Source: a bacterium (GTDB taxonomy: Bacteria > Myxococcota_A > UBA9160 > UBA6930). Taken from it: DNA of 64,000 bases. Below are positions 9,655 to 56,847 of this stretch, piece by piece. Position 1 is the stretch's first letter. Every line of letters begins with the position of its first letter. Location of the stretch: assembly GCA_024228115.1 (NCBI GenBank), contig JAAETT010000054.1:12793-76792 (forward strand), read 5' to 3'. The position numbers and the translations under genes were made by a program. The notes beneath the pieces were generated by a model. It searched no databases. It was not told the DNA's origin and was given only the letters and a program-made list of their open reading frames with translations.

Positions 9655-9670
9655 CGTTTCAGCCTGAACT
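9655..9670. promoter_or_regulatory. Candidate enhancer site E (CGTTTCA-GCC-TGAACT)
   Basis: Member of the recurrent yGTTTCA-N3-yGAAmk motif. Its centre is about 78 nt upstream of the flgB -24 GG, in the activator-flgB spacer. Confidence 0.5.
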
Positions 9671-9707
9671 GCAGGTGGGAAGTTTCTGCCGCCTGCGAAG
9701 TGCGGGT

Positions 9708-11000
9708 TCAGGCGAGTTCGTAGAGGCGAATCTTGTTGCGCAGCGTGCGCACGCTGATTCCGAGGGCCCGAGACGCCATGGTGCGATTGCCGTCGGTGAC
9801 CTCGAGAGAACGAATCACCGCAGCGCGCTCGAGTTCGCGAAGATTGAGAGAGCGCAGCTTCGGAGTCAGGGAATCCCCCGAGCTCCCGCTCGGTGAAATC
9901 AACGGATCCAGATCGATGGAACGCCCCGGATAGAGCAGAGCGGCCCGGCGCATCAGGTTTTCGAGCTCGCGGACGTTGCCGCGAAACGGACGAGAGGAAA
10001 GATCGGCAAGGGCCGCATCCTCGAGCCGTGCGGGCTCGCTGCCCGAGCTGGCAGCGAAGCGATCCAGAAACGATTGCGCGAGCAACGCAATATCCCCAGG
10101 GCGTTCGCGCAGCGGAGGAATCCTCAAGGTGACGACATCGAGCCGGTAGTACAGATCCGCCCGGAAGCGACGACTCGAGACCTCCCGTTCCAAATCTCGC
10201 TGAGTGGTCGCGATGACCCGGATATCGAGTGCCTGCGGCTTGCGTCCTCCGAGCGGGATCACCTCCCGTTCCTGCAGCGCACGCAGGAGTTTGGGTTGAA
10301 GGTCGAGCCGCAGGTCGGCGACTTCATCGAGGACCAGGGTTCCCCCGTTGGCCGCCGCCAGCTGGCCCACCCTGGATTCGACCGCACCGGAGAACGCACC
10401 CTGGGCGTGCCCGAACAGCTCGCTCTCCGCCAAGGTTGGCGTCAGCCCGGCGCAACTCATCACCACGAACGGTCCGCGACGGCGGGAACTCCCATCGTGG
10501 ACCCAACGTGCGAGAAGTTCTTTGCCCGTACCAGATTCGCCCACCAGACGAATCGTTGCCTCACTGGTCGCCACGCGGCGCAGCTGCTCCAACAATGCCC
10601 GCATGCGGGGGTCCTGGGTCAGGAAGGTCCCATCCGATGGACCATCGTGCTCCCTCCGCAAGACCTGGGCCAACGCCCGCTCCAACGAGGACACGTCGAA
10701 GGGCATGCGCAGGTAGTCGGCTGCGCCAACGCGGAATGCATCGACGACCAGGTCGACCCCCGGACGCCCACCCACGGCAACCACCCCGACATCCGGCGCG
10801 CTACGCCTGAGTTCTTCGACCAGGTGGAGGTCTGCATGACAGCTCACTTCGATGAGGGAAGCATCGATGTCACCTTCCGCTGCTCGCGCCAGCAGCACTT
10901 CATCGTCAGCACCTTCTTCTGCCGAGTAGCCGGCAGCGCGAGCAACCGCCAGCACATCCCGGCGCAGGCCTTCGTCGCGTAGACGCGCGAGCACCCTCAC
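9708..11000 (-). CDS. Sigma-54-dependent transcriptional activator (NtrC/FlbD-like) with a degenerate receiver domain
   Basis: AAA+ core VGESGTGKELLARWVH..., the sigma-54 contact loop ESELFGHAQGAFSGA, and a C-terminal Fis-type HTH (NRTMASRALGISVRTLRNKI). The start is set at GTG 11000, overlapping the upstream TGA (GTGA). By eye, the receiver has E at the phospho-Asp position (SLIEVS) and M at the conserved Lys (YLRMPFD). Confidence 0.88.
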   Translation of the reverse strand: MRVLARLRDEGLRRDVLAVARAAGYSAEEGADDEVLLARAAEGDIDASLIEVSCHADLHLVEELRRSAPDVGVVAVGGRPGVDLVVDAFRVGAADYLRMPFDVSSLERALAQVLRREHDGPSDGTFLTQDPRMRALLEQLRRVATSEATIRLVGESGTGKELLARWVHDGSSRRRGPFVVMSCAGLTPTLAESELFGHAQGAFSGAVESRVGQLAAANGGTLVLDEVADLRLDLQPKLLRALQEREVIPLGGRKPQALDIRVIATTQRDLEREVSSRRFRADLYYRLDVVTLRIPPLRERPGDIALLAQSFLDRFAASSGSEPARLEDAALADLSSRPFRGNVRELENLMRRAALLYPGRSIDLDPLISPSGSSGDSLTPKLRSLNLRELERAAVIRSLEVTDGNRTMASRALGISVRTLRNKIRLYELA

Positions 11001-11584
11001 GTGGCTTCTCCCGCGGAGAGCCAGAACACGGCGCCACTGGCGGTACTCTCCGCCTCGGTGCCACATAGAAGGGCAAGCGGTTGGAGCCGACGCAAGGCGT
11101 CCGCTGCGTTCAGATCACCCGTGATCGGCAGCTGCCAGCGTGCTTCGACACCCCAACGTCCTTTGCCGGGAACGAGCCCGACTTCGAGAGGGCCCGGCTG
11201 TGCGTGCTCGGCTGCGGCTCCGGTGAGCGCGATGACCGCTCGACGAAGCACGGCAGGATCGAGCGGTGGAGAATCTTGTGGGCTTTCCACGCGTAGATCC
11301 AGGCCTCGCGCTGCAAGCACCGGGCGAAGACGCGCTGCCACCTCTTCGAGCACGGGCGCGGATGGGCAATCACGGGGCGGACCGGGCGGAGCCAGCACAC
11401 GGAGAGCGAGCTCCAGCTGCCGATCGATCGTCGCCACAGCGTCCCGAATGGTGCAAGCAAGCTCGGCGGTGCGGGGCGTCCTGTCCTCCCGATCGAGTCG
11501 GCTGGCCGCAAGCTCGACACGCGACAACGGTGCGCGGATTTCAAGGATGGCGGAGGCCAGCTCAGCGTCGCGGGTTGCGCTCAC
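10997..11584 (-). CDS. Small histidine-kinase-like protein lacking the phospho-accepting His (pseudokinase candidate)
   Basis: The H-box-like block reads AILEIRAPLSRV, where kinases have sHELRTPL (His replaced by Leu). A DHp-like helix pair follows, then a short degenerate ATPase-like tail with no recognisable G1/G2 boxes. It is translationally coupled on both sides (ATGA upstream, GTGA downstream). Confidence 0.5.
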   Translation of the reverse strand: MSATRDAELASAILEIRAPLSRVELAASRLDREDRTPRTAELACTIRDAVATIDRQLELALRVLAPPGPPRDCPSAPVLEEVAARLRPVLAARGLDLRVESPQDSPPLDPAVLRRAVIALTGAAAEHAQPGPLEVGLVPGKGRWGVEARWQLPITGDLNAADALRRLQPLALLCGTEAESTASGAVFWLSAGEAT

Positions 11585-13728
11585 GGCGTCGCCTCTCCGC
11601 CGGGCAGGAGGGCTCGGCGTGTGGCGGAGAACCCTGGGGCCCCGATCTCTTGCCGCAGCTCGAAGGCTCGTAGCTCGAGCGTCGCCAATCGACTCCAGTG
11701 ATCTGCGCCGGCGGTGGGAACCGCGGCTCGTTCGAATTCACGGCGGCGCTGCCGGTCCTTGCTCAATCGGGCCCTTTGAAATCTGGCCCGCGCGCGCCTG
11801 GATCCATCGGGAAGAGACTCGGCCGCGAGACCGTAGTAGTAGTGGGCGCGCCCAAGCTCGCCGGCATCGGCCAATCGATCCGCCAGCACCAACGCGACGC
11901 CAGCTCGGACGGAAACCTCCGAGTCATCTGCTTTCGGGTCGGGGTCGAGCTGCCAGCGCGAGGTCTCGTCCTCGAGGAGCATCATGGCATCCTCACCCGC
12001 AACTCCTCTTGCGACCAGCTCCGCCAGCCAGCCAAGGGCGCGCAGAGGTGCGTCTCCCTGCTGGACGATCGGAAGCAGGAGTTCGGCGGCTGCCTCATCT
12101 CGCCCCTCGCGCAATGCCAGCTCGGCCTCGAAGAGCGACCAGCTATCGCCGGCCAGACCGCCAGCCGGGACGTCTTCGGATTCGCCTCCTCGAAGATGGG
12201 CGCGGAGTGCAGCTCGTACCGCTGGAAGATCACCTGCACCGAGGGAAGCCCGAGCGAGCCGAAGCGTGAGCCGTGTTGCGAGCTCCGGACCAAATGCGCG
12301 CGTGACAGCGCGATAGCTGGCCAATGCGGGCACCGGCATTCCAAGCGCGAGATAACAATCCGCCAGAGCCACGAAGGGCTCACTCACACGGGCTTGACGC
12401 AGCAGCAGCTCCCGTCTGCCCCCCAACCGGCGGACGGTGGTTGGGCAATGGGATTCGACTGCCGCGAGCAGCGCCGCATCCAGATCATCTCGATGGGTTG
12501 GTGCGAGCTCGTCGTCCGCATCTTCATAGGCGAGCCGTGCGTAGGTTTCCAACGCCTGATCGATCTCGCCTGATTGCACCTGGCGATGGAGAATCAACGC
12601 TCGAGCATGAATCGAAAGCCCCCGCTCGGGGGATCCAGCTGCTTCTCGCAGCACTTCCAACCGGTCTGCCTCCGTAGCCTCGCCCAGCTGGTGATCGGCA
12701 ATGCGAACTCTTGCCAGACGACGAACGTCCCGATCCGAGTGGACATCCGCTACCCGCTCGAGAGCGATCAGGGCATCACTGCCGCGGCCGCGTGCGACCA
12801 GGACATCCGCCTTGCGAATCACCGCAAGACCGGTCGCCAGTTCATCGCCTTCCAGATCTGCTGCCCGGGAAATATGCACGAGAGCACGACGTGAATCTCC
12901 AGCACGAAGAGCAGATTCCGTCGCGACGCGATCAAAGGCCCGCAGATCCAGATCCAGCGAGCGAGCCTCTTCGAAACGAGTGCGGAAACGCAGCCAGCCA
13001 ACCCGGGCGGGCAGCTCGTCCCCCATGCCTGCAACCAGGCGCAAGCGGGCTGCGGCGGCCAGGCGGTCGACCGTCGCGTCGGCAAGGGACTCATAGAGCG
13101 AACGTGATTCCTCGTTGCGCCTGGCGAGGAGCATCGCCTCAGCACGCAGGAACCGTGCGGCTTCCGCGCGGTCGGCGGGGAGTTCAGCACCTTCGCCCTC
13201 CCGGAGTGCCCGAAGGGCCGATGCGCTCGCTTCGGGTGCCCGGTGATTGTGCAGCTCGGCACGGCCGCGTTCGAGAAAAGCGCAGACACGAGCTTCGCTG
13301 CTCCCACCGCGACCGAGGGCCTGGTCGATAACGTGGATCGCTTCCGTCCGCCGAAGCCTCGTATCGGCGACCCGGGCGCTGACGACGGCCAGCCACAAGC
13401 GCAGTTCCGGATTCAGGCGCTCGCCTTCCTTGCGTCTCGTTTCTTCGGCCAGCTCGAGAACCCGACGCACGGCCGATTCTGAGCCGCCGCGCAGGAATGG
13501 CAGAACGGGAAGAAGGGTTGCCGGCGGCTCCTTGGGCAGACAAGGCCCGAGAGCGTCGAGCACGGGCAGCCAAGCCCGACGCGCCGAGAAGATTCGAAAC
13601 GGATCCGGAGGAACCTCGATGGCTTCGGGCGGCATCGTCTCGGCCTCGGACTCCGCGAAACCTGTTCGGCCCGGAACGATGAGCGTCAAGACTGCGCCGA
13701 CCAGGAGAATCGGGATCCGGTGGGTCAC
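11581..13728 (-). CDS. Large secreted all-alpha / TPR-like repeat protein, function unknown
   Basis: The start is set at GTG 13728, overlapping the pilZ stop (GTGA). N-terminal signal-like segment IPILLVGAVLTLIVPGRTGFAES, then about 690 aa of Ala/Leu/Arg-rich helical repeats. Confidence 0.6.
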   Translation of the reverse strand: MTHRIPILLVGAVLTLIVPGRTGFAESEAETMPPEAIEVPPDPFRIFSARRAWLPVLDALGPCLPKEPPATLLPVLPFLRGGSESAVRRVLELAEETRRKEGERLNPELRLWLAVVSARVADTRLRRTEAIHVIDQALGRGGSSEARVCAFLERGRAELHNHRAPEASASALRALREGEGAELPADRAEAARFLRAEAMLLARRNEESRSLYESLADATVDRLAAAARLRLVAGMGDELPARVGWLRFRTRFEEARSLDLDLRAFDRVATESALRAGDSRRALVHISRAADLEGDELATGLAVIRKADVLVARGRGSDALIALERVADVHSDRDVRRLARVRIADHQLGEATEADRLEVLREAAGSPERGLSIHARALILHRQVQSGEIDQALETYARLAYEDADDELAPTHRDDLDAALLAAVESHCPTTVRRLGGRRELLLRQARVSEPFVALADCYLALGMPVPALASYRAVTRAFGPELATRLTLRLARASLGAGDLPAVRAALRAHLRGGESEDVPAGGLAGDSWSLFEAELALREGRDEAAAELLLPIVQQGDAPLRALGWLAELVARGVAGEDAMMLLEDETSRWQLDPDPKADDSEVSVRAGVALVLADRLADAGELGRAHYYYGLAAESLPDGSRRARARFQRARLSKDRQRRREFERAAVPTAGADHWSRLATLELRAFELRQEIGAPGFSATRRALLPGGEATP

Positions 13729-14264
13729 TCGTCTCTCATCGCCCGCTGACGAAGCTCCGAGCGTTGGATCTCCAGCACGTGGGCAATCACCGCATCCCGA
13801 TCGCACTCGGCGATGACCCGAAACCCTGTTGCGATGGTTACGGACTTTCCCTCCGCTTCACATTCCGCGACCCGCCCAATGCTCAGAACCGTATGATTGG
13901 GTGTGCCGGGGATCGTAATCTCCATCAGTACGTCGCTGTCGAGGGCGACTTCCTCGCAGACAGGAAATCGGATCCCGGAACCGGAGAGGGTCACCTCGAG
14001 CGCCCCCTCGGAGGTCATCCAGGATTCTTCTTCGGTCTCGAAGCGGGCGAGAATCCGATCGAGCTTGGTCTCCACCCGGTCGAGCCACTCTGCGAGGCCC
14101 GGATCGACTCTCGAGACATCAGGCGCTTCGCGGGTTTGAATCTCAGATGTCAGACCCGCAATCTCGGAAGGAATCACCCGCCGGCAGCGCACGGGTAGAA
14201 AGGTGGAGACACGGTAGTAGGAACGCTGGTCCGCACCGCTGTACGACGTGTTGGGGACGTTCAA
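13725..14264 (-). CDS. PilZ-domain protein (c-di-GMP receptor)
   Basis: RxxxR motif (QRSYYRV) and a DxSxxG-like motif (TLSGSGIRF). TTG start with AGGAGG 8 nt upstream. First gene behind a consensus sigma-54 promoter. Confidence 0.8.
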   Translation of the reverse strand: MNVPNTSYSGADQRSYYRVSTFLPVRCRRVIPSEIAGLTSEIQTREAPDVSRVDPGLAEWLDRVETKLDRILARFETEEESWMTSEGALEVTLSGSGIRFPVCEEVALDSDVLMEITIPGTPNHTVLSIGRVAECEAEGKSVTIATGFRVIAECDRDAVIAHVLEIQRSELRQRAMRDE

Positions 14265-14297
14265 GAGACGATCCTCCTCGCTTCTACGAAGATCATC

Positions 14298-14313
14298 AGC
14301 AAATGACGTGCCA
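14298..14313 (-). promoter_or_regulatory. Sigma-54 promoter upstream of pilZ (TGGCACG-TCAT-TTGCT)
   Basis: The minus strand reads TGGCACGTCATTTGCT, matching every specified position of the extended consensus TGGCACG-N4-TTGCW. About 35 nt upstream of the pilZ TTG start. Confidence 0.75.
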
Positions 14314-14350
14314 GCCTGGTAGGCAAGGGGGGGACGTCCTGCGCCTCCGT

Positions 14351-14366
14351 TGTTTCATCTTGCAAG
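14351..14366. promoter_or_regulatory. Candidate enhancer site F (TGTTTCA-TCT-TGCAAG)
   Basis: Motif family member. Its centre is about 46 nt upstream of the pilZ -24 GG. Confidence 0.35.
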
Positions 14367-14474
14367 TTCGCCCATTTCATGTGCGAGCAATTGAAGCGGG
14401 TTGCGGGAACAACCACATGTGTTCTGCGACTTCCTGTAAAGCTTCGGCGGAAACACACCGACGTGTGAGAAGCC

Positions 14475-15317
14475 ATGGCTCGAAGTTCCGAATCCATACG
14501 AAGAGAGCTCGAACGCCGCTACGACGCGGGGAAGATCGAACTTCCCCTGCTTCCCGAAATCGCCCAGCAAGTCATGGAAACGGCTTCGAATCCGTTGACG
14601 GCTTCCGCCGACCTGGCAACGCTCGTACACAGCGATCAGGGCCTTGCGGCAGAAATCCTGAAAGACGCGAATTCCGCGATGCAAGCGGGCCGAGTCGCCA
14701 TCGTGTCCCTTCAGCAGGCCATCTCGCGGCTCGGCATTCAGCGCGTCGTGGAGCTCGCTGTCGCGGCGAGCGTGAGAGATGGTGTGTTCTCGGTGCCGGG
14801 CTTTCAGCAGGAACTCCGGGGGCTCTGGCGTCGCTCTCTCGGCACTGGCCTGTTCGCGAAGGAAGTGGCCCGGGCGTTACGCGAAGATGTCGAGGCCGCC
14901 TTCCTTTCTGGCCTTCTGCGAAACGTCGGCACCGCGCTCCTGATCCGTGCCCTGGCGCGTATTTGTCGTGTGAACGAACCGAACATGCGTCCCGAAGAAT
15001 TCCTGGAGCTGGACGCTGCTTTTCGCGTGCGCCTGGGACTCGATGCCGCCGAGAGCTGGGGCCTTCCTGAGCACGTTCGTGATGCCATCACGTTCGATGG
15101 ATCGGTACCACCGGAAACCGGTACGACTCATGCGAAGCTCGTCCTTCTGGCCGAGCGACTCTTCGACCTGATCGATGCCGACGATGAGAACGCTTCGAAG
15201 GAAGAGGCTCTTCGCGATGATCCGATCCTCGACGTCCTGGGAATCTACCCTGAAGACCTCGATGCTCTCCTCGAAGTGGGCAACACGGTGCGGGAGATGC
15301 TGGAGACCGGCGAGTGA
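14475..15317 (+). CDS. HDOD-domain signalling protein
   Basis: LPLLPEIAQQVMETASNPLTASADLATLVHSDQGLAAEILKDANSA... is the HDOD N-terminal pattern. Confidence 0.85.
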   Translation: MARSSESIRRELERRYDAGKIELPLLPEIAQQVMETASNPLTASADLATLVHSDQGLAAEILKDANSAMQAGRVAIVSLQQAISRLGIQRVVELAVAASVRDGVFSVPGFQQELRGLWRRSLGTGLFAKEVARALREDVEAAFLSGLLRNVGTALLIRALARICRVNEPNMRPEEFLELDAAFRVRLGLDAAESWGLPEHVRDAITFDGSVPPETGTTHAKLVLLAERLFDLIDADDENASKEEALRDDPILDVLGIYPEDLDALLEVGNTVREMLETGE

Positions 15318-16714: not shown

Positions 16715-16772
16715 GCCCAGCTGACGAAGCTGCGATCACGGCTCATCTCGACGAGGTTCCGGGATCCTATTG

Positions 16773-17915: not shown

Positions 17916-18340
17916 CTGTTTCGGCTGCTTGGCGTCCGCGGAAGATCGGGCTTTTCCCCGATACTTCGCTCAGGCTCGGAGGGAGAACTCGGGAAACGCG
18001 TCTTCCCGTCGATCTCGGGACTTCCTGCGCCGATCCAGAACCACATCCAAGGGCGCGCCATCGTCTGCGACGGCGCCGAAACGCGCATGAGGACCGGCGT
18101 GAACGCTGCTCTTGCGACGTGCGGATGCCATTCCCAACTCGATGGACGTCCAGGCGACACAGGCGAGACCCGTCAAGAGAATCAGCTCCATGCAAGTGAG
18201 TGCCCGATCCGCCCGAAGAGGTGACGGCTGGGGAGAAGCCTTGAACAGGATCAGTGAAAACCCCCAGGCCCCGGGGGACTTGCTCAAGACCCGGCTGGCC
18301 GTCGACGATGGAATTCATTGGGGAGGGGCGGAGGAAGAGC

Positions 18341-18646: not shown

Positions 18647-18668
18647 CCCGAGAGAGAGGATCCTGGCT

Positions 18669-19658
18669 TCAGGAGCGGCGAGCCGCTGCCACCGCCCTCT
18701 GGATTTCCACTAGATCGTACGGTCGAAGGACGAAGCCGCGCGCGCCTGCGCGTAGTGCGCATTCGACCATCCCGCGCGTCGCCCGCTCGTGCGCCAATAG
18801 CGCAATGGTCCCGGAAGTCTGTTCGTTGCGCACCAGATGCTCAACGAATTCGAGACCGGACCGGCCTCCCAACTCCCACGCGACGATCACTGCGTCGGCC
18901 TCTTGGATCGATTCCCGGCTGTCGTCACCGAAATCGGCAGGATCGATGGCTGCGAGCTCTTTCTCCTGCTCCTCACTGGCCTCCTCGATGCGGTCCCTTT
19001 CCTCTCCGTCCGAATCGATGATGATGACCGAGGCTTCCTCTGCCAGAGAATCCCCTGCGGCCTTTCCATCGCCCTGTCCGATCAAGATCAAGAGAGGCGC
19101 CGGGTCGAACCCCTCGACACCAAGCTCCAGATCGATGCACCACTGCGTTCCGTCACCGAGCCATGCAGTATTCGAGGAGGCGTCCTCCAGCGGACGAGCA
19201 TCTCGAAGTTGAAGATCACCGAACTCGTGGGGCTCGAGCAGACGCGTGAGCACAGCCGCAGCGAGCTTCATGACTTCACCGAAGCCTTCGGAGTGAGCGG
19301 CGAAATCACCCCCTTCGCGAGCTTCGCCGACCGCATCCCCCTCGAGGCCGGCCTGGAGAGCTGCGAGGCCGATGGCGTCCGGAGTGGGGCAAAGGAGGTG
19401 AACGTCTCGCGGTTGATCTCCTTCGCTGCGCGTCTGCTGATCGACGACAACGTCCAGGCACTCGAGGTCGGCGGCCGAGACAGACCGCGTGCCCTTGACC
19501 TCGACCGCGGCCGCGGGCCCCAGGAGCGCGCTCAGATCCTTGGAGAATGCCTCGGAGAATTGCGTGGCCACCTCAGCGAGGCTCTCCGAATCGAGTCCGT
19601 CTTCGCCAGACGCGACTTCTTCCTCCTCTTCGACCGCGTCGGCCTCTTCTTCGCTCAT
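18669..19658 (-). CDS. Acidic protein: CheC/CheX-like N-terminal region plus a receiver-like C-terminal domain (probably a pseudo-receiver)
   Basis: The N-terminal repeats (LAEVATQFSEAFSKDLSALLG..., EGFGEVMKLAAAVLTRLL) resemble CheC/CheX/FliN-type segments. C-terminus VIIIDSDGEE...DAVIVAWELGGRSGLEFVEHL...LRAGARGFVLRPYD has receiver topology, but the expected phospho-Asp position reads Ala (by-eye alignment). ATGA coupling to the upstream gene. Confidence 0.4.
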   Translation of the reverse strand: MSEEEADAVEEEEEVASGEDGLDSESLAEVATQFSEAFSKDLSALLGPAAAVEVKGTRSVSAADLECLDVVVDQQTRSEGDQPRDVHLLCPTPDAIGLAALQAGLEGDAVGEAREGGDFAAHSEGFGEVMKLAAAVLTRLLEPHEFGDLQLRDARPLEDASSNTAWLGDGTQWCIDLELGVEGFDPAPLLILIGQGDGKAAGDSLAEEASVIIIDSDGEERDRIEEASEEQEKELAAIDPADFGDDSRESIQEADAVIVAWELGGRSGLEFVEHLVRNEQTSGTIALLAHERATRGMVECALRAGARGFVLRPYDLVEIQRAVAAARRS

Positions 19659-19993
19659 GCTCGCCTACTTACGAAACGTGGTGCCTCTTTGGGGCACTTT
19701 TCAGTGACGACACGCCTTGCATGACGTATCTGCTCGAGTTCTTCCCGAATCCCGGAGAGCTGTGCGCGGGCCTGTTCCTGCACTGCGCGGTCGAGGGCGA
19801 GTACATCCTCGACGACCTGTCGGGTATCTGAATCGATGCCGTTCCGCGCCGCTGCCATGAACGCGTCGAAAGCAACCCCACGGGCCTCGAGAGCTGCCTC
19901 CATTGCTTCAGCATCCTGCCGCTCGACGGCGCCGGCAAGACCGATGGCCGCCTTGCGCAGGGCCTGGGCCCTGGCCCCGAGGGCAGCGCTCAT
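19655..19993 (-). CDS. Small helical protein downstream of fliS (FliT-like chaperone candidate)
   Basis: 112 aa and all-helical. Translationally coupled to fliS (upstream) and to the acidic protein (downstream). The assignment rests on position and composition only. Confidence 0.3.
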   Translation of the reverse strand: MSAALGARAQALRKAAIGLAGAVERQDAEAMEAALEARGVAFDAFMAAARNGIDSDTRQVVEDVLALDRAVQEQARAQLSGIREELEQIRHARRVVTEKCPKEAPRFVSRRA

Positions 19994-22750: not shown

Positions 22751-22761
22751 GGGGTTTTGTT

Positions 22762-22923: not shown

Positions 22924-22939
22924 TGCAAGGCGGGTGCCA
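22924..22939 (-). promoter_or_regulatory. Sigma-54 promoter upstream of flagellin (TGGCAC-CCGCC-TTGCA)
   Basis: The minus strand reads TGGCACCCGCCTTGCA. About 175 nt upstream of the flagellin ATG, which implies a long leader. Confidence 0.65.
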
Positions 22940-23072: not shown

Positions 23073-23088
23073 CGTTTCAACTCGAAAG
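23073..23088. promoter_or_regulatory. Candidate enhancer site B (CGTTTCA-ACT-CGAAAG)
   Basis: Motif family member lying between two divergent sigma-54 promoters. Its centre is about 142 nt from the flagellin -24 GG and about 57 nt from the GNAT -24 GG. The flanks (GCGACGTTTCAA..GAAAGC) are nearly identical to site A. Confidence 0.5.
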
Positions 23089-23136: not shown

Positions 23137-23152
23137 CGGCACCGTTCTTGCG
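23137..23152 (+). promoter_or_regulatory. Sigma-54 promoter upstream of the GNAT gene (CGGCAC-CGTTC-TTGCG)
   Basis: The plus strand reads CGGCACCGTTCTTGCG. About 35 nt upstream of ATG 23186. Confidence 0.6.
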
Positions 23153-23185: not shown

Positions 23186-24307
23186 ATGGTTGGGGAAAGC
23201 GATGCGGTCGGTCGCGTGACCTCCGAGCAGTGGCCTGGCGTGACGGCGTGGCTCGAGCGCGGCCTCCGCGACGGCATCCGGGGAAGACTCCAGGCGGAGT
23301 ACCCGATTTCCTTGACGCCCGAGAATGCTGGCTCCCAGAGGCTCGTTCGAAGCGGCGGCCATTCCTTGTCCCATGCCATGGTTCACCGTGTGACAGGGCG
23401 AATCGGCGACGCGAGATTGCCGCTGGGATTGATTGGCCTGGTCTATACAGAGGAGGAAGCCAGAGGCCGGGGCCTGGCGGGACGTTGTGTCGAAGCCTGC
23501 GTCGAGGACCTTCTCCGCGACGGCGTCGCGCTGGCGGTTCTGTGGAGTGATCGCCACGCCTTCTACGCACGCCTGGGGTTCCATCCTGCAGGCCGTGAAC
23601 GATTCCTGGTGCTCGACCAGAGAGTGCTGGGGCGCTTGGCCGCCTGTGACGAAAACGACCCGCTGCCTCCCGTCAGCGAACCCTTGGCCGCGCACTGGCC
23701 GGCGATCGAAGCATTGTACGAGGCGAGACGTTTTCGGGCCGATCGAAGGCCCGGCGATCTCGCTCTGCTGGCGGCGGCGCCGGAATCCGAGCTTCGGGTC
23801 GCCTGCCGTGATGGCCAACCGGTTGCGTACGCGGCCCTCGGACGCGGGAACGACTTTGCCGAGGTCGTCCACGAGTGGGCCGGTGAGGAAGCAGGGGTCA
23901 TCGCCTGCCTGAAAGCCCTCCTTGTTGGACGCCGAGCCGTAGGCTTGATGACGGGACCCGAGGATGGCGACCTCGTCGCCCGCCTGCGCACAGCCGGGGC
24001 TGCGCAACACGATGGCGTTTTTGGCCTGGTACGCCTGTTGGATCCACGCGGGCTTTGGAAGGAAGTGCGGACCCATGTCCCCGAGCTCGAGGGGATCGCG
24101 TTGGCAAGAACTCATGGCGGAGTTCGCGTCACGGGCAGTACTGGCTCCGTGGAGATTTCCGACCCGCAGGCACTCGCCCTGCTGCTCGAAGGGGATTCGC
24201 AAGCCGACCTGAGCGCTCTCAGACCCGCCCTTTCCGATCGGGAATGGCACGGGCTGGAGAAGCGCCAGCCCCTTCCCCTCTATCTCTGGGGATTCGATTC
24301 GATCTGA
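23186..24307 (+). CDS. Eis-like GNAT N-acetyltransferase (GNAT plus extended C-terminal region)
   Basis: Acetyl-CoA motif region ...LIGLVYTEEEARGRGLAGRCVEACVEDLL...YARLGF. 373 aa. The antisense 574-aa ORF (22898-24622) is treated as a shadow ORF. Confidence 0.75.
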   Translation: MVGESDAVGRVTSEQWPGVTAWLERGLRDGIRGRLQAEYPISLTPENAGSQRLVRSGGHSLSHAMVHRVTGRIGDARLPLGLIGLVYTEEEARGRGLAGRCVEACVEDLLRDGVALAVLWSDRHAFYARLGFHPAGRERFLVLDQRVLGRLAACDENDPLPPVSEPLAAHWPAIEALYEARRFRADRRPGDLALLAAAPESELRVACRDGQPVAYAALGRGNDFAEVVHEWAGEEAGVIACLKALLVGRRAVGLMTGPEDGDLVARLRTAGAAQHDGVFGLVRLLDPRGLWKEVRTHVPELEGIALARTHGGVRVTGSTGSVEISDPQALALLLEGDSQADLSALRPALSDREWHGLEKRQPLPLYLWGFDSI

Positions 24308-24774
24308 GTCGCCTCTGGAGCTGCCGAATCGCCAGGAACGGACGGAATGGGCAAGGGCTCGCGTGTGGCGTGATGGCTCCGCTCGAGGATCACCTGTGCG
24401 CCTCGACGAGCCTGTGAATTGACCAGGAGTGGCGCTGCAAGATTCAAGGTCGTCGCTGCCTCCCGAACGGTGGCAATCGCGTAGAGCTCGATGCCTTCGG
24501 TTGTCTTTGCATCGATCGATTCGAGTTGGGATCGGCTCAGGTCCGGTGCGTACTCCGGAAAGAACTGGCGCGGGTCGGTTACGACGAATGCCAGGTCCGC
24601 CCGGTCCAGGCTCACGAGCCATAGGAAGGCCGAGTCACGATCGTGACGCAGCAGGGCGAAACGGCGCACGTCCGCGAAGCCGGGCAATCCGTCGAACGCC
24701 AGCACCTGGTCGGCCGGGATCTCGAGTCGCCCGAAGCGTTGGTGATCCATGGTTACGTCGTCTGCTCCGCTCAC
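24280..24774 (-). CDS. fliW: Flagellar assembly factor FliW
   Basis: ...[29 protein letters not shown]...[23 protein letters not shown]... is the FliW pattern. GTG 24774 overlaps the csrA stop. ATG 24750 is an alternative start. Confidence 0.9.
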
Positions 24775-25025
24775 TTGCCGGCTCCCTTGGCATTTCCATG
24801 GGCTGCCGTAGCGGGCAGCCAGCGCTCCAGATCTTCCGTCTCGACAGATGCCGCCTCGACGTTGGCCGCGACGATCCGGTCGAAGACTTCTTCGCGGTGG
24901 ACGGCAACTCGCCCAGGCGCCTCGATCCCGATGCGCACCTGTCCTCCCGCTGAACTGATCACGGTGATCCGGATCTCGGAACCGATCCGAACACTCTCTC
25001 CGGCTCGGCGGGTCAAGACCAGCAT
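24771..25025 (-). CDS. csrA: Carbon storage regulator CsrA (flagellar, FliW-partnered type)
   Basis: [47 protein letters not shown] is the canonical CsrA fold sequence. It has a C-terminal extension and sits immediately upstream of fliW. Confidence 0.95.
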
Positions 25026-32363: not shown

Positions 32364-32379
32364 AGCAAGACTCATGCCA
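32364..32379 (-). promoter_or_regulatory. Sigma-54 promoter upstream of flgF (TGGCAT-GAGTC-TTGCT)
   Basis: The minus strand reads TGGCATGAGTCTTGCT, one mismatch to the consensus core. About 39 nt upstream of the flgF start. Confidence 0.7.
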
Positions 32380-32411
32380 CTTGTTAGTGGGAAGAAGTTG
32401 CCAGGTGAGGC

Positions 32412-32490: not shown

Positions 32491-32517
32491 CGTTTCACGA
32501 GCGTTTCAGCTTGAACC
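32491..32517. promoter_or_regulatory. Candidate enhancer site D (CGTTTCA half-site plus CGTTTCA-GCT-TGAACC)
   Basis: The full site is 32502-32517, with an extra half-site at 32491-32497. Its centre is about 131 nt upstream of the flgF -24 GG. 16 of 18 nt are identical to site E. Confidence 0.5.
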
Positions 32518-32838: not shown

Positions 32839-33693
32839 TCAGCCGAAGAGACCTTCTGCGTTCTTCGCCTCCTCCTCGACGAGTTCGAGGATGGGATCCA
32901 TGTCGGCGGCACCGAGATCCAGATAGCTCCATGCGGGGAGTTCCATGACGTCGATCGCTTCGATCGCGCCGCGCCTCCCATAGCCGAGGCGGCTGCAGCA
33001 GCGGGTCACGACGGCGGTCAGCGCGATCAATCGACCGGCCTCCGGGGGCCCGTCCGGATAGTCCGCGGGATCGTGGTGATGAAAGCGAATCGCATCAACC
33101 AACTTCTCCGGCAGTTTCCATTTTTCGCCTACCAGAGCACCCAGTTCCGCGTGGTCGAAGCCGAATTCTTCCTGTTCCGCATCTCGGAAGGCAATGCCCT
33201 CGTTGTAGGTGCGCATGATGATCGTGCTGTATTGCTCGCGGGCCGTATTCGCCAGGGCGATCTTCCCGAGATCGTGAAGCAAGCCCGCGGTGAAGGCCGA
33301 TTCGCGCTCGACATCGATGAGTCCGTAGCTCGAGAGGCGCGCCGCCACCGAGCCGGCAAGCGTCGAGTGCTCCCAAAGGAGCTTCTCGGAGAGCCCGAAG
33401 TTCTGGAACACATCGCGCAACGATGCAGCCATCACCAGATTCTCCACGGTTCGAAAACCGAGCAGGGCGATCGCATGCCGCAGGGTCTCGATCCCCCGCG
33501 AAAATGCGTAGAGCGACGAGTTCGCGACCTTCAAGATGCGCGCAGCAAGAGCGGGATCCGTTTCGATCACCGTGCGAAGATCGTCCGCGCTCGTGTTGGG
33601 GTCGGCGGCTGCCGTCATCACCTTGCTGGCGACGGCGGGGATTCCGGGAAGATCTCCGACGACAGCGAGATAGGGCTTGAGTCGCTCGTTCAT
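32839..33693 (-). CDS. HDOD-domain protein (occupies the slot after flhG)
   Basis: ...LPGIPAVASKVMTAAADPNTSADDLRTVIETDPALAARILKVANSSLYAFSRGIETLRHAIALLGF... plus HD-like ...AGLLHDLGK. Confidence 0.85.
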   Translation of the reverse strand: MNERLKPYLAVVGDLPGIPAVASKVMTAAADPNTSADDLRTVIETDPALAARILKVANSSLYAFSRGIETLRHAIALLGFRTVENLVMAASLRDVFQNFGLSEKLLWEHSTLAGSVAARLSSYGLIDVERESAFTAGLLHDLGKIALANTAREQYSTIIMRTYNEGIAFRDAEQEEFGFDHAELGALVGEKWKLPEKLVDAIRFHHHDPADYPDGPPEAGRLIALTAVVTRCCSRLGYGRRGAIEAIDVMELPAWSYLDLGAADMDPILELVEEEAKNAEGLFG

Positions 33694-42790: not shown

Positions 42791-44221
42791 TCAACCGTTC
42801 AACGGCAAGCGGCTGGCGCGCACGTGGGCGTCGCTCTCGATTCCGAATTCTTTCAGGCGTCGCCACAGAGTCGTCGTTGAGATCTGCAGCAGCTCAGCGG
42901 CTCGCTTCCGATTCCATCCGACCTTGTCGAGTGTCTCCAGGATGTGGCGGCGCTCGATACCTGGAAGGCTCTGGATTCCCGTATCCAGGACGAGCCGCTT
43001 CGGCTCGCGAACATGAAGCGGAAGGTCATCCACCTCGATCCGACCCGTGCGACACAATGCAACGGCGCGCTCGATCGCGTTCTCGAGCTCTCGCACGTTG
43101 CCCGGCCATCGATATCCCGCGAGCCGATCCATCGCGGCGTCGTCGATATCCTCGACCGGGAAGCTGGTCTTGTCCGCCATCTGGCCGAGGAAGTGTCGTG
43201 CCAGAAGCGGAATATCTTCCAATCGCTCGCGAAGCGGCGGAACATGCACCGGAATCACGGCAAGGCGGTAGTAGAGGTCTTCTCGGAAGCGACCTTCGGC
43301 TACCTCGGTTTCGAGATCCTTGTTGGTGGCCGTGACGAGCCGGACATCGACATAACGCGTGACCTCCTCGCCCACGGGCCGGATTTCACCGGTCTGCAGG
43401 AAGCGCAGTAGTTTCGCCTGCATGGAGAGCGGCATCTCTGCTACTTCGTCCAGGAAGACGGTGCCTCGATCGGCGTGCTCGAAAAGGCCCTTGCTGTTCG
43501 AAGAAGCTCCGGTGAACGCTCCGCGGCGGTGTCCGAAGAGCTCACTCTCCAGAAGCGTTTCGGGAAATGCTGCGGAGTTCACGGCCGAAAAGACCCTCTC
43601 GCCACGGCGACTCGCGTCGTGAATCGCTCGCCCGATCAGTTCCTTTCCGGTTCCGGTTTCGCCGGTGATCAAAGCCGTGCTGTCGGTCTCGGCGACCTTG
43701 CGGACCAGTTCGAGAAGCTCTCGCATGGCCAGGGATTCGCCGATGATTCCGGGGAAGCGATGTTTCCAACCGGTCGAGGTTGGCAACGTTCGGGTCGGCT
43801 CCGGCTCCTCGATGATCTTGGGCAGCCGGGCGACGACCTCTTCCAGCGCTTCCGCGTCCCAGGGCTTGCCCAGGAAATAGGAAACGCCGGCCTGATTGAT
43901 GGCAAGCTGGGCAATATGCGGATCATCCGAGCCAGTGATCAGCACGCGACTGATCTCCGGCCAGGTATCCCGCACGGTCGTGAGCAACTCCACGCCGGAG
44001 CCGGTCGTGAGCCGCTGGTCGGCGATCACGCCCTGAATGCGCTCGGCGTGAAGCAAGGCCATGGCCTGGGCCATGTCGCCGGCTTCGATCGGTCGAACGT
44101 CGAGTCGTTTCAATGCCCGCGCGAGGGCGCGGCGCACCAAAGGCTCGTCGTCGACGACCAATACAGTCGGCAGCGATGCGTTCACTTGCCGCCTGTCCTT
44201 TTCTTCCCACCGTCCGTTCAT
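42791..44221 (-). CDS. Sigma-54-dependent response regulator (NtrC/FleQ-FleR class) with a canonical receiver
   Basis: The start is trimmed to ATG 44221. The receiver has VLVVDDE, VIADQRL, LITG and LGKPW. AAA+ ITGETGTGKELIGRAIH, ESELFGHRRGAFTGA. HTH RKRAAELLQISTTTLWRRLKE. Confidence 0.92.
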   Translation of the reverse strand: MNGRWEEKDRRQVNASLPTVLVVDDEPLVRRALARALKRLDVRPIEAGDMAQAMALLHAERIQGVIADQRLTTGSGVELLTTVRDTWPEISRVLITGSDDPHIAQLAINQAGVSYFLGKPWDAEALEEVVARLPKIIEEPEPTRTLPTSTGWKHRFPGIIGESLAMRELLELVRKVAETDSTALITGETGTGKELIGRAIHDASRRGERVFSAVNSAAFPETLLESELFGHRRGAFTGASSNSKGLFEHADRGTVFLDEVAEMPLSMQAKLLRFLQTGEIRPVGEEVTRYVDVRLVTATNKDLETEVAEGRFREDLYYRLAVIPVHVPPLRERLEDIPLLARHFLGQMADKTSFPVEDIDDAAMDRLAGYRWPGNVRELENAIERAVALCRTGRIEVDDLPLHVREPKRLVLDTGIQSLPGIERRHILETLDKVGWNRKRAAELLQISTTTLWRRLKEFGIESDAHVRASRLPLNG

Positions 44222-44404
44222 TTTGGAGCCACCCCGCTCGCGTTTCCGCGAATAACTGCCGGCGGCAGAGACAGTGCCGGCTGCGATCATGGGCTCATGG
44301 ATCGGCGGGGGAACGGGCCACCTTGACGATATTCTTGGACTTTTCCGTCCTGACTGGATCTCGGGAGAGGCCTTTTGTTGGCCTTTCGCCCCTTTTCAGC
44401 CAAT

Positions 44405-44429
44405 CGTTTCAGGTGTTTCAAGGAGAAAG
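44405..44429. promoter_or_regulatory. Motif-like site C (CGTTTCA-GGT-GTTTCA-AGG-AGAAAG) upstream of the canonical activator gene
   Basis: Two direct GTTTCA half-sites. They abut a weak sigma-54-like element (minus strand TGGCTGAAAAGGGGCG, 44387-44402) and overlap a weak sigma-70-like TTGAAA-N17-TGAAAA. Confidence 0.25.
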
Positions 44430-44451
44430 GTCGGGCGGAAAGAATTTCCCC

Positions 44452-46734: not shown

Positions 46735-46750
46735 TGCAAGCGGCGCGCCA
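46735..46750 (-). promoter_or_regulatory. Sigma-54 promoter for hypothetical-motA-motB (TGGCGC-GCCGC-TTGCA)
   Basis: The minus strand reads TGGCGCGCCGCTTGCA, one mismatch to the core. About 47 nt upstream of ATG 46688. Confidence 0.65.
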
Positions 46751-46766
46751 GGGCACGGGTCTTGCT
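46751..46766 (+). promoter_or_regulatory. Sigma-54 promoter for the plus-strand glycosylation operon (GGGCAC-GGGTC-TTGCT)
   Basis: The plus strand reads GGGCACGGGTCTTGCT. It directly abuts the divergent minus-strand promoter. About 105 nt upstream of ATG 46872. Confidence 0.6.
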
Positions 46767-46842
46767 CTTGTGTCTCTTCGCAGCCTTCCCTTGGCCTTTG
46801 CGCCAAGGAGAGGGTCGCTCGGGTTCCCGATCGAAACCGCGA

Positions 46843-46858
46843 CGTTTCAATTTGAAAG
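46843..46858. promoter_or_regulatory. Candidate enhancer site A (CGTTTCA-ATT-TGAAAG)
   Basis: The best palindrome of the family. Its centre is about 101 nt upstream of the motAB-side -24 GG, and it lies 78-93 nt downstream of the plus-strand -12 element. Confidence 0.5.
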
Positions 46859-47576: not shown

Positions 47577-47577
47577 C

Positions 47578-51078: not shown

Positions 51079-51088
51079 GGAACATTCC

Positions 51089-52564: not shown

Positions 52565-52645
52565 GTCAACCAGCGGGGACGGAGTTTACAATTGACTTTT
52601 CAGAGGAAAGTCAATTGTAAACTCCGTCCCCGCTGGTTGACTCAT
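52561..52645. repeat. Perfect 39-bp inverted repeat (7-nt loop) between convergent genes; probable bidirectional terminator or palindromic element
   Basis: Arms 52561-52599 (ATGAGTCAACCAGCGGGGACGGAGTTTACAATTGACTTT) and 52607-52645 are exact reverse complements. The loop is TCAGAGG. The TGA stops of both flanking genes lie at arm positions 2-4. Confidence 0.9.
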
Positions 52646-55739: not shown

Positions 55740-56700
55740 GATCGGCCTTCCATGTCTGGATCAACTCCGCGAGTCGATCAACCGTGAGCCAGAGCGAGTT
55801 CTGATCGCTCGAATAGACCAGACCCTCCGGAATCTCGCGCCCCCCCTTGGGATCTCCGCCAATCACGAAATGGGTATCGAACTCCCGTGAGTCACGAGCT
55901 TCGTCCTCGGTGAGCAGTACCTCGTGAAGCTTCTCTCCGGGACGGATGCCGATTTCCTTGATCAGCGCATCCGGGCGGATGGCTTTGGCAAGGTCGAGAA
56001 TTCGCATGCTGGGAATCTTCGGAACGAAGATCTCTTCTCCCTGCATATCGCCCAGGGCCTGGAGGACCAGATCCACGGCCTGCTCGAGCGAAATCCAGAA
56101 CCGGGTCATGCGCACATCCGTGAGGGTCATGACGCCCGTATCCGCCTGCTCCAGAAAGAGAGGAATGACGCTGCCGCGGCTTCCCACGACATTGCCGTAG
56201 CGCACGACCGCGAAGCGCGTATCCGTCCCACCGGCATAGGCGTTGCCGTGGATGAACAGCTTCTCCATACAGAGCTTGGTGGCACCGTAGATGTTGACCG
56301 GATTGACGGCCTTGTCCGTAGAGAGCGCGATCGCCTTCGGCACGCCTGCGTCCAGGCTGCACTCCAGGATGTTCATCCCGCCCATCACATTCGTCTTGAC
56401 GGCCTCGGCCGGATTGTATTCGCAGACCGGCACCTGCTTCATCGCTGCAGCATGAACCACCGCGTCCACGCCGCTCATGGCTCTGCGAAGCCTGACGCGA
56501 TCCCGGATATCTCCGATGAAGAACCGCAACCGCTCGTCATCCCCGAAACGACGAAGCATCTCGACCTGCTTCAGCTCGTCCCGGCTGTAGATCCGAATCA
56601 TGCAATCGTCTCGCTCGGCGAGCATTCTGCGTACGAACGCGTGCCCAAATGATCCGGTACCGCCTGTGAGAAGAATCTGATGCACGTTCCCTCCTGCCAA
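55732..56700 (-). CDS. pseB: UDP-GlcNAc 4,6-dehydratase (inverting), PseB/FlaA1 type
   Basis: ILLTGGTGSFGHAFVRRML, ...STDKAVNPVNIYGATKLCMEKLF... (SDR YxxxK). The start is TTG 56700 or GTG 56685 (after AGGAGGG). Confidence 0.9.
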   Translation of the reverse strand: MAGGNVHQILLTGGTGSFGHAFVRRMLAERDDCMIRIYSRDELKQVEMLRRFGDDERLRFFIGDIRDRVRLRRAMSGVDAVVHAAAMKQVPVCEYNPAEAVKTNVMGGMNILECSLDAGVPKAIALSTDKAVNPVNIYGATKLCMEKLFIHGNAYAGGTDTRFAVVRYGNVVGSRGSVIPLFLEQADTGVMTLTDVRMTRFWISLEQAVDLVLQALGDMQGEEIFVPKIPSMRILDLAKAIRPDALIKEIGIRPGEKLHEVLLTEDEARDSREFDTHFVIGGDPKGGREIPEGLVYSSDQNSLWLTVDRLAELIQTWKADRG

Positions 56701-56759
56701 TCGGCTCTTCTGAATCCACGTGCGTCGGCACTTCGGCGCTCGCGAATGTGCAAGACGAA

Positions 56760-56775
56760 CGCAAGATCGATGCCC
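56760..56775 (-). promoter_or_regulatory. Sigma-54 promoter upstream of pseB-pseC-maf (GGGCAT-CGATC-TTGCG)
   Basis: The minus strand reads GGGCATCGATCTTGCG. 60-75 nt upstream of the pseB start candidates. Confidence 0.55.
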
Positions 56776-56831
56776 GTTCTATCCACGGATCGCGCTCCGT
56801 CATGGGCGGAGGCTCCCAGAACGCAGCCCTA

Positions 56832-56847
56832 CATTTCAACTCGAATG
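56832..56847. promoter_or_regulatory. Candidate enhancer site G (CATTTCA-ACT-CGAATG)
   Basis: 16 of 18 nt are identical to site B. Its centre is about 65 nt upstream of the pseB -24 GG. Confidence 0.4.

Follow-up and report, generated by a model that had tools for sequence, protein, structure and literature searches.

The system analyzed here is a set of candidate enhancers in a 64-kb stretch of bacterial DNA that carries a flagellar gene cluster (this whole stretch is referred to as the window, and site coordinates are window positions), and its closest described counterparts are found in flagellar and quorum-sensing regulation. In Rhodobacter (Cereibacter) sphaeroides, the first activator of the FleQ/FleT pair turns on the operon of the second, after which both act jointly at later flagellar sigma-54 promoters, and FleT is not known to carry a DNA-binding domain. 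The ftr consensus of FlbD in Caulobacter is CCCGGCA-N5-TGCCGGG, and a degenerate receiver has been reported both for FlbD and for DVU1063, a flagellar regulator in Desulfovibrio (PMC3333781), the sites of which read GGCA-N5-TGCC in the published site lists (PMC4641369 supplement). In Desulfovibrio vulgaris, 33 motifs of sigma-54 activators have been catalogued (Kazakov 2015, PMC4641369), and at qrr1 of Vibrio fischeri the upstream activating sequences (UASs) of LuxO (TTGCAWWWTGCAA) and SypG (TTCTCANNNTGMDWN) serve two activators at one sigma-54 promoter (PMC10162802). In the window, in which the flagellar genes lie nearly all on the minus strand, an initial annotation had pointed to a recurrent 16-bp motif upstream of putative sigma-54 promoters; we refer to this motif as M1, to a second motif as M2, and to the related loci compared by L-numbers. 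M1 is conserved in sequence, position and helical phase at the sigma-54 promoters of this cluster and its relatives, and we suggest, at a probability of roughly three in four, that it is the UAS (enhancer) of a flagellar sigma-54 regulon, with predicted binding most probably by activator 2, one of two sigma-54 activators encoded in the window.

Read in promoter orientation, M1 is cTTTCaAgnTGAAACG, a 16-bp near-palindrome with the ideal dyad GTTTCAA-N-TTGAAAC, a form present in L039 and at site A of the window. The core, TTTCAA-N-TTGAAA, is perfect at site A and in its 5-3-5 form reads TTTCA-N3-TGAAA; the better-conserved half is the promoter-proximal one, TGAAACG. The coordinates and sequences initially given for sites E, F, B, D, A and G are right (Table 1), whereas site C, although present, is better placed as one full site with an extra CGTTTCA than as the two half-sites of the initial annotation. 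All seven sites are intergenic and share one orientation, likewise relative to the downstream promoter, as had been claimed, and direct reading also bore out the reported identity of D with E and of B with G, each at 16 of 18 nt. The intergenic map used here comprises 4.9% of the window and was checked by Pfam and by the gene calls of syntenic loci; gene calling based on G+C content at third codon positions (GC3) gave no discrimination of genes, and a codon-usage log-odds map together with Pfam and the syntenic gene calls was used instead. The excess of the heptamer CGTTTCA that had been estimated by hand is modest overall, with 12 copies on both strands (nine on the plus strand) against 6.7 expected, a count of 12 being reached by 2 of 100 shuffles, but its placement is strongly biased, with 6 of the 12 copies in intergenic DNA (p = 7e-6). 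In an unbiased k-mer scan, the 6-mer most enriched in intergenic DNA was GTTTCA/TGAAAC, with 8 of its 21 copies there (p = 2.8e-6), and the leading 7-mer was CGTTTCA, with the same 6 of 12 copies.

The association of M1 with sigma-54 promoters was assessed by scoring 12 positions of TGGCACG-N4-TTGCW with GG and GC mandatory. The window contains six matches of at least 11/12, every one of them intergenic, and five of these six strong promoters have an M1 of 20 bits or more at a distance of 53-149 nt upstream. The remaining one, on the plus strand at 46751, shares site A, which is located downstream of it: the two promoters at 46735-46766 stand back to back on opposite strands in an arrangement nearly invariant in six genomes, so that site A is upstream of the motAB promoter and downstream of the methyltransferase promoter. 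Three 10/12 matches within genes are without M1. The term strong, applied initially to all promoters with an M1 site except site C, fits those of at least 11/12 and is overstated for GNAT (9/12) and pseB (8/12); the pseB promoter is conserved and is stronger in relatives, reading TGGCACTCTTCTTGCG in L039 and L014. The initially reported distances of 46-142 nt hold when measured from the motif centre, whereas from the motif edge to the -24 GG they are 39-135 nt; counted from M1 start to promoter TGG, the six window promoters and their orthologues give 53-150 nt.

As a guard against circularity, the cross-validation matrix drew solely on the five orthologous flgB-upstream sites and was run over the 128,000 window positions. 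It ranked site D 2nd, A 3rd, B 5th, G about 11th and F 14th, all of these hits being intergenic and in promoter orientation. The M1 matrix of the window sites was also applied to related loci totalling 256 kb. Of its 21 hits scoring at least 16 bits, 12 were located upstream of a sigma-54 match by no more than 260 nt, in a zone covering 1.9% of positions (binomial p = 5e-16); the remaining nine include four opposite-strand readings of the same palindromic sites and two orthologues of site C. The initial annotation had named as its refutation a motif no commoner upstream of sigma-54 promoters than elsewhere, and the related loci, which come nearest to the genome-wide scan it proposed, did not refute it.

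Up to 14 related metagenomic genomes retain M1 at the orthologous promoters, at FlgF identities as low as 55%. The syntenic loci were gathered via FliG, MotA and homologues of FlgF, activator 2 and PseB; the nearest relatives are metagenome-assembled genomes (MAGs) labelled "Myxococcota bacterium", "Deltaproteobacteria bacterium" or "bacterium", with a FliG identity of 85-91%. M1 is kept at flgB (site E) in four genomes (L001-L004), at the PilZ-like operon (site F) in L001 and L002, in both with the TTGCA left half of site F, at flgF (site D) in L032, L033, L040 and L041, and at flagellin (site B) in L032 (150 nt) and L041 (138 nt). At DUF8042-motAB it is kept in five genomes, and sites A1 and A2 form invariant cores across six, their spacing being ~10 bp larger in L039 and L014. 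Site C is kept in L034, L036 and L014, and site G in L038, L039 and L014, with a degenerate version in L037. In the alignments of the flgB, flgF and motAB regions (alignments A1, A2 and A3, respectively; 55-63% mean column identity), conservation is concentrated in M1, M2, the -24/-12 elements and the ribosome-binding region. The orthologue of site G in L039 is the perfect palindrome GTTTCAAGCTGAAACG, and this locus has another perfect dyad, GTTTCAATTTGAAAC; such perfect dyads point to a dimeric helix-turn-helix (HTH) protein.

The distance between M1 and its promoter is also conserved in a specific manner, because between orthologues it is either constant or shifted by about one or two helical turns (steps of ~10-11 bp; Table 1). 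Among periods of 6-16 bp, the best was 10.7 bp with R = 0.83, and the permutation p-values were 5e-5 with 14 distance classes and 0.015 with just the six window promoters. The extra M1 copies or half-sites at sites F, D, C and A are likewise whole turns away (11, 21-22 and ~31 bp): the tandem offset is 11 bp at flgF, ~21-22 bp at the PilZ-like operon and motAB, and ~31 bp at motAB in L039 and L014, where it follows a ~10-bp insertion. This phasing is the pattern expected of enhancer-promoter contact via DNA looping.

Table 1 Motif sites, predicted promoters, activator genes and further elements of the window, with M1-promoter distances in the window and related loci
Feature	Position	Strand	Sequence	Remarks
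M1 site E	9655-9670	minus	AGTTCAGGCTGAAACG	starts 85 nt upstream of flgB sigma-54 promoter
M1 site F	14351-14366 (14351-14379 with half-site)	minus	CTTGCAAGATGAAACA	53 nt upstream of activator-1 operon promoter; second half-site TGAAATG 22 nt farther upstream
M1 site B	23073-23088	minus	CTTTCGAGTTGAAACG	149 nt upstream of flagellin promoter; also 49 nt upstream of divergent GNAT promoter
M1 site D	32502-32517 (32491-32517 with half-site)	minus	GGTTCAAGCTGAAACG	138 nt upstream of flgF promoter; additional half-site TGAAACG 11 nt downstream (plus-strand CGTTTCA at 32491)
M1 site C	44414-44429 (44405-44429 with half-site)	minus	TGTTTCAAGGAGAAAG / CTTTCTCCTTGAAACA	between motB and activator-2 gene; additional TGAAACG half-site (plus-strand CGTTTCA at 44405)
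M1 site A1	46843-46858	minus	CTTTCAAATTGAAACG	108 nt upstream of DUF8042-motAB promoter
M1 site A2	46822-46838	minus	GGTTTCGATCGGGAACC	centre ~21 bp from A1 centre
M1 site G	56832-56847	minus	CATTCGAGTTGAAATG	~72-73 nt upstream of pseB promoter
M2 at flgB	9678-9690	minus	GGCAGAAACTTCC	centre 21 bp upstream of site E centre
M2 at flgF	32390-32402	minus	GGCAACTTCTTCC	11 nt upstream of -24 element
M2 upstream of activator 2	44437-44449	minus	GGAAATTCTTTCC	centre 21 bp from site C centre
M2 at pseB, degenerate	56856-56868	minus	GGCAGATTTCTCC	centre 22 bp from site G centre
Promoter of flgB-flgC-fliE-fliF...	9570-9585	minus	TGGCACTCCCTTTGCA	at least 11/12; M1-promoter distances 85, 85, 86, 86, 97 nt
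Promoter of PilZ-like/TPR/195-aa/activator-1 operon	14298-14313	minus	TGGCACGTCATTTGCT	at least 11/12; M1-promoter distances 53, 53, 52 nt
Promoter of flagellin	22924-22939	minus	TGGCACCCGCCTTGCA	at least 11/12; M1-promoter distances 149, 150, 138 nt
Promoter of GNAT gene	23137-23152	plus	CGGCACCGTTCTTGCG	weaker, sigma-54-like, 9/12; kept in L032
Promoter of flgF-flgG-flgA-flgH-flgI...	32364-32379	minus	TGGCATGAGTCTTGCT	at least 11/12; M1-promoter distances 138, 139 (L032), 139 (L033), 128 (L040), 119 (L041) nt
Promoter of DUF8042-motAB	46735-46750	minus	TGGCGCGCCGCTTGCA	at least 11/12; M1-promoter distances 108, 108, 108, 106, 126, 129 nt
Promoter toward methyltransferase/pseudaminic-acid genes	46751-46766	plus	GGGCACGGGTCTTGCT	at least 11/12
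Promoter of pseB-pseC-maf	56759-56775	minus	GGGCATCGATCTTGCG	8/12, weak in window; M1-promoter distances ~73, 96, 97 nt
Activator 1 (EBP1)	9708-11066	minus	HTH_8 …GISVRTLRNKIRLY	FlbD-like, degenerate receiver, GAFSGA loop; start codon uncertain
Activator 2 (EBP2)	42791-44221	minus	HTH_8 …ISTTTLWRRLKEFGI	receiver, GAFTGA loop
Sigma-28-like element	44297-44326	minus	TCAAG-N15-GCCGATCC	just upstream of activator-2 gene
flgB leader hairpin and Shine-Dalgarno block	~9525-9560	minus	CCGACGATCCCCATGTGGGGACGGGAGGA	downstream of flgB promoter
PilZ-like gene	13725-14264	minus		
fliW	24280-24774			
csrA	24771-25025			
HDOD gene	32839-33693			follows flhF-flhG
Inverted repeat	52565-52641		CAGCGGGGACGGAGTTTACAATTGAC…GTCAATTGTAAACTCCGTCCCCGCTG	long, near-perfect; between convergent radical-SAM and maf genes

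M1 is accompanied at some promoters by the second motif, M2, GG(C/A)A-N5-T(G/T)CC, which the initial annotation does not list; longer versions, CCGGCA… or GCGGAAG-N3-CTTCCGC, are frequent. M2 agrees with the ftr consensus of FlbD and with the sites of DVU1063. Its bare pattern is not enriched across the window (8 matches against 5.4 expected), and its support comes from the intergenic position of 3 of the 8 matches, from conservation and from a fixed spacing to M1. The flgB M2 is kept in L001, L003 and L004 (in L004 it reads CCGGCAGGAATTGCCCGG) and is imperfect in L002 (GGCACGAACGTCC); the flgF M2 is kept in L032, L033 and L040 and adjoins the promoter in L041; the M2 upstream of activator 2 is the perfect palindrome GCGGAAGGATCTTCCGC in L036, and that of pseB the perfect palindrome GCGGAAGATCCTTCCGC in L039. 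In 12 instances from three loci in ten genomes the centres of M2 and M1 are 20-22 bp apart. The PilZ-like operon, flagellin and motAB promoters have M1 without M2. The one enhancer code proposed initially for rod, hook, stator, flagellin and glycosylation genes is incomplete, as an FlbD/ftr-type M2 is conserved at a subset of the promoters.

Both sigma-54 activators annotated initially are real, each with Sigma54_activat and HTH_8 domains in Pfam, and the question is which of them binds which motif. The best NCBIfam match of activator 1 is FlbD (NF050807), at 349 bits over the full length and under the equivalog cut-off of 750, and its receiver is degenerate like those described for FlbD and DVU1063. 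In L005, a locus from an unrelated Desulfobacterales MAG, an activator with the identical GISVRTLRNK helix is encoded and CCGGAAAAATTTTCCG lies ~130 nt upstream of a sigma-54 promoter. We suggest with fair confidence that M2 would be bound by activator 1, and this assignment leaves activator 2 as the favoured M1 binder. Activator 2, the receiver of which gives a good Pfam match and has by eye the usual acidic, Thr and Lys residues, is the likeliest candidate by elimination and by regulatory logic: the promoter of the operon that encodes activator 1 has M1 without M2, so that a cascade in which the M1 binder turns on activator 1 would be natural. In four genomes, the activator-2 gene is preceded by both M1 and M2, an arrangement suggestive of feedback. 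The activator 2 HTH …VGWNRKRAAELLQISTTTLWRRLKEFGI is unchanged in the 54 best-scoring homologues listed, down to ~56% identity, and this would fit an M1 that is old in the clade, where it is present at 55% FlgF identity. The 5-3-5 geometry common to M1 and the LuxO site is a further argument for activator 2, and qrr1 offers a precedent for two activators at one sigma-54 promoter. The initial annotation had considered that either activator could bind M1; both are indeed present, but the two are not equally likely, given that activator 1 fits M2. As a separate observation, L005 has a FleQ/FlrA-type box, GATGTCAAAATAATGACAT, before one sigma-54 promoter and the ftr-type CCGGAAAAATTTTCCG before another (~3000-3130 and ~14550-14700), and these two sites match its two activators, with the helices KRTTLVEK and GISVRTLRNK.

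We propose the following mechanism. A dimeric HTH_8 sigma-54 activator, most probably activator 2, a receiver-AAA+-HTH response regulator, would bind M1 and oligomerise, often with the help of another M1 copy or half-site at a distance of one to three turns. DNA looping would then bring the activator to the sigma-54 RNA polymerase at the -24/-12 promoter 50-150 bp downstream, a contact that would keep M1 on one helix face, and ATP hydrolysis would open the promoter. The predicted targets of M1 are flgB-fliE-fliF..., flgF-flgG..., flagellin, DUF8042-motAB, pseB-pseC-maf and the operon ending in activator 1, with GNAT and the divergent pseudaminic-acid genes as probable further targets. Activator 1, acting on the M2 sites that accompany M1 at flgB, flgF, pseB and upstream of activator 2, would add a second tier, giving a two-tier cascade with dual-input enhancers.

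Several alternatives to this proposal were considered. It is unlikely that the M1 enhancer is bound by activator 1 or by both activators, and M2 by activator 2 or another protein. Such an assignment would allow positive autoregulation, the activator-1 gene being the last of the site F operon and lying directly upstream of site E, and it gains from the difficulty of reading DNA specificity from HTH domains: the recognition helix of DVU1063, LSRVSIQKMVARY, is unlike that of activator 1, ISVRTLRNKIRLY, yet the sites of DVU1063 are M2-like, so that HTH similarity is a weak guide and assignments based on it are unreliable. Attempts to assign the binder by HTH similarity to Desulfovibrio activators or to solved structures (the nearest being Aquifex NtrC1) were not decisive. 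However, it is M2, not M1, that fits the FlbD ftr and DVU1063 sites while activator 1 scores best against the FlbD model, L005 pairs the GISVRTLRNK helix with an M2-type site, and a purely self-activating operon without other input would be unusual. Less probable still is that M1 is the site of a protein other than an activator, encoded outside the window (an architectural or bending factor, a repressor or a co-regulator, e.g. one responsive to cyclic di-guanosine monophosphate (c-di-GMP)), with M2 or another sequence as the true enhancer. The phasing and the fixed spacing to M2 would fit a bending or accessory factor as well, c-di-GMP genes (GGDEF, PilZ, HDOD) are plentiful in the cluster, and M1 is present at site C, where no sigma-54 promoter follows. 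Against such a protein, three promoters have M1 without M2 while sigma-54 needs an activator site or an activator from solution; the size, dyad, tandem layout and distances of M1 are typical of the activator sites in PMC4641369. Nor does M1 fit the consensus of integration host factor (IHF), WATCAANNNNTTR; compared by eye on both strands, the seven sites have at least three mismatches at defined positions. A non-functional M1, that is a chance AT-rich word, a repeat remnant, a terminator, an RNA motif or a sigma-28 promoter, is very improbable. Intergenic DNA is AT-richer and AT-rich words are generally enriched there, sites E, D and C directly follow stop codons, and the CGAT after D and C recalls a sigma-28 -10 element; but M1 is conserved at seven orthologous positions amid diverging flanks, cross-validated and phased, a 6-nt AT-rich arm with a 1-3 nt loop is unable to form a stable hairpin, at sites F, B, A and G, which are in divergent promoter regions, there is no gene upstream that would need a terminator, no terminator-like structure is present in the motB/activator-2 gap, the sole region scanned, the window has no Rfam match, and the spacing between TCAAG-like and CGAT-like sequences is inconsistent between sites.

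Several points nevertheless weigh against M1 as an enhancer bound by activator 2. The pairing of activator 2 with M1 rests on elimination and regulatory logic, the difference between the helices of DVU1063 and activator 1 bears on the elimination step, and a third activator or a non-activator encoded outside the ~64-kb window may bind M1. At site F, just 39 nt separate the motif edge from the -24 GG, a short distance for DNA looping. The p-values based on relatives are optimistic, given that orthologous sites lack statistical independence. The host lineage is known from MAGs alone. Finally, site C has no downstream sigma-54 promoter and lies instead ahead of a sigma-28-like element, so that M1 cannot act there as a classical sigma-54 enhancer. 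On balance, the co-occurrence with sigma-54 promoters, the cross-validation, the enrichment upstream of sigma-54 promoters in the related loci, the conserved footprints at seven positions and the phasing all back the role proposed initially for M1, that of an enhancer of a flagellar/glycosylation sigma-54 regulon.

The sigma-28-like element next to site C, TCAAG-N15-GCCGATCC, which resembles the FliA promoter consensus, is kept in L034 and L036, and a search of the motB/activator-2 gap for a sigma-70 consensus promoter and a terminator found none. FlbD represses fliF through ftr sites. At site C, M1 and M2 may in much the same way exert feedback on a promoter independent of sigma-54; another possibility is readthrough into activator 2 from the motAB promoter. 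The sigma-28 consensus has TAAA/TCAAG as the -35 and GCCGATAA as the -10 element at a fixed spacing of ~13-15 nt. By this consensus, M1 is not itself a sigma-28 promoter, as its sites are without a consistently spaced -10 element; the element at site C is the one intergenic sigma-28-like element in the window and is apart from M1, while a second match, at 63102, lies inside a gene. In Pseudomonas and Vibrio, fliA lies after flhF-flhG; in the window no fliA gene was seen, and the HDOD gene takes this place instead.

A more distant group of loci, L017-L031 (MotA 59-66% identity), differs in promoter type. Around motAB, two or three sigma-28-like promoters are present in several of its longer loci, and strong sigma-54 matches are absent (none at 11/12, three at 10/12), so that these loci are unable to test M1. 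The sequence CCGATCGTTGAAATGTTCG in this group was considered as a diverged M1 and rejected, being better explained as the -10 region of a sigma-28-like TCAAG-N14-GCCGATC. The group also has a conserved palindrome, TGCAAATTTGCA, and an ftr-like GGCAGAAATTTCC at the start of the gene following motB. The comparison hints that the window lineage moved late genes to sigma-54 control and that late flagellar genes were rewired between clades. We speculate that the enhancers of flgB, flgF and pseB might be two-activator AND-gates and that late genes might have been taken over by a dual sigma-54 code, a reading to which we give clearly less than even odds. The FlbD-type activator 1 on M2 and the clade-specific activator 2 on M1 would then sit on the same DNA face two turns apart and co-assemble, possibly into a mixed AAA+ ring, promoters with M1 only would need activator 2 alone, and the late genes concerned would be those for flagellin, stator and glycosylation, for which the sister clade apparently still uses sigma-28-like promoters.

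The window has a G+C content of 63% and, as judged from Pfam, NCBIfam and the gene calls of the syntenic loci, a near-complete flagellar gene set. Running from high to low coordinates, CBS-GGDEF and PilZ genes on the plus strand are followed by pseB-pseC-maf, by radical-SAM, pseF-like, NeuB, WbqC, a hypothetical gene and a methyltransferase on the plus strand, by DUF8042-motA-motB, by activator 2, fliL-fliM-fliN-fliOP-fliQ-fliR-flhB-flhA-flhF-flhG, the HDOD gene and a small open reading frame (ORF), and by flgF-flgG-flgA-flgH-flgI, a rod-binding gene and flgN-flgK-flgL-csrA-fliW. The GNAT gene on the plus strand separates this block from flagellin, fliD-fliS and further genes, after which come the PilZ-like gene, the 741-aa and 195-aa proteins and activator 1, and at the lowest coordinates flgB-flgC-fliE-fliF-fliG-fliH-fliI-fliJ-fliK-flgD. 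The gene initially named pilZ has no Pfam or NCBIfam match at E <= 0.001; it does have RxxxR (RSYYR) and SGSG-type motifs by eye and is PilZ-like at best. The 741-aa and 195-aa proteins of its operon gave no family matches either. The hairpin and Shine-Dalgarno block in the flgB leader are kept in five genomes, and with csrA and fliW present, post-transcriptional control of this leader by CsrA is conceivable. The inverted repeat between the radical-SAM and maf genes is probably a bidirectional terminator. Two further words enriched in the k-mer scan, CAATTG and GGGGACGG, derive mostly from this repeat and from the flgB leader hairpin and were not retained as motifs. L033 belongs to the complete chromosome OZ245002.1; there, fliW and GNAT are separated by an insertion (18765-19793) that comprises a DDE_3 transposase and a 166-aa ORF and breaks the GNAT/flagellin arrangement found in the window. 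No exact match to the MotA of the window was found, probably because of a differing annotated start codon, and placing L041 by FlhA identity was uninformative (~73% to every group).

Together, these data provide a testable wiring diagram for flagellar control in a flagellated Myxococcota-like lineage known only from MAGs (cultured Myxococcota are non-flagellated gliders), with M1 ahead of rod, hook-associated, flagellin, stator and pseudaminic-acid operons, FlbD-type M2 at a subset of them, strict helical phasing and two activators that probably form a cascade. In the searchable, incomplete literature we found no description of M1 or of flagellar regulation in these MAGs. As matrices, M1 and M2 can be used to define the sigma-54 flagellar regulon in OZ245002.1 and similar genomes. 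The understanding of sigma-54 enhancers is unchanged by this analysis and their catalogue is extended, with natural examples of fixed-spacing composite enhancers and of a single enhancer common to two divergent sigma-54 promoters that stand back to back.

Compared with the systems described to date, M1 shows the sequence features of a sigma-54 UAS, namely distance, dyad, tandem copies, phasing and an AAA+ activator encoded nearby. Such UASs lie roughly 70-200 bp from a -24/-12 promoter, are dyads of a size that suits a dimeric HTH protein and mostly come in at least two copies. It resembles the UASs of HTH_8 activators, which are dyads of 13-17 bp with an AT-rich core, often in tandem, autoregulated and with the activator encoded nearby, and it lies mostly within ~100-150 nt upstream of a TGGCAC-N5-TTGC promoter. 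Like the FleQ/FlrA boxes, M1 would be the site of a top-level flagellar activator and is also found upstream of that activator's own gene (PMC4641369); however, a direct comparison shows that it differs from the GTCA-N6-TGAC box in sequence and spacing and is not one of these boxes, and activator 2 has a phosphorylatable-looking receiver and a ISTTTLWRRLKEF helix where FleQ has a FleQ-type N-terminal domain and a KRTTLVEK helix. With the ftr and DVU1063 sites, the motifs share a place as enhancers of flagellar sigma-54 promoters, M2 being of the ftr type and activator 1 FlbD-like, but M1 itself is not an ftr site, because its half-site differs and its arrangement is opposite (TTTC…GAAA as against GGAA…TTCC). 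M1 has the same 5-3-5 inverted-repeat geometry as the LuxO UAS, and the left half of site F is TTGCA; yet it is not a LuxO site, as the central base of the half-site is T/A in M1 and G/C in TTGCAWWWTGCAA. At qrr1, two activators use adjacent or overlapping sites at one sigma-54 promoter, a precedent for the arrangement proposed here, with the differences that the regulon is flagellar rather than quorum-sensing and that M1 and M2 are separate by two turns rather than overlapping. The would-be two-activator flagellar cascade recalls FleQ/FleT, but here both activators have HTH_8 domains and each apparently has its own site. Finally, GTTTCAA-N-TTGAAAC is not listed in the D. vulgaris catalogue, in which the nearest motifs are those of DVU3334, GTTACA-N3-TGTAAC (CTTTCATTTTGATAC), and DVU2827, …AAAAATGAAAC, and one motif here spans nearly all of the flagellar hierarchy, with flagellin, stator and glycosylation genes among its members.

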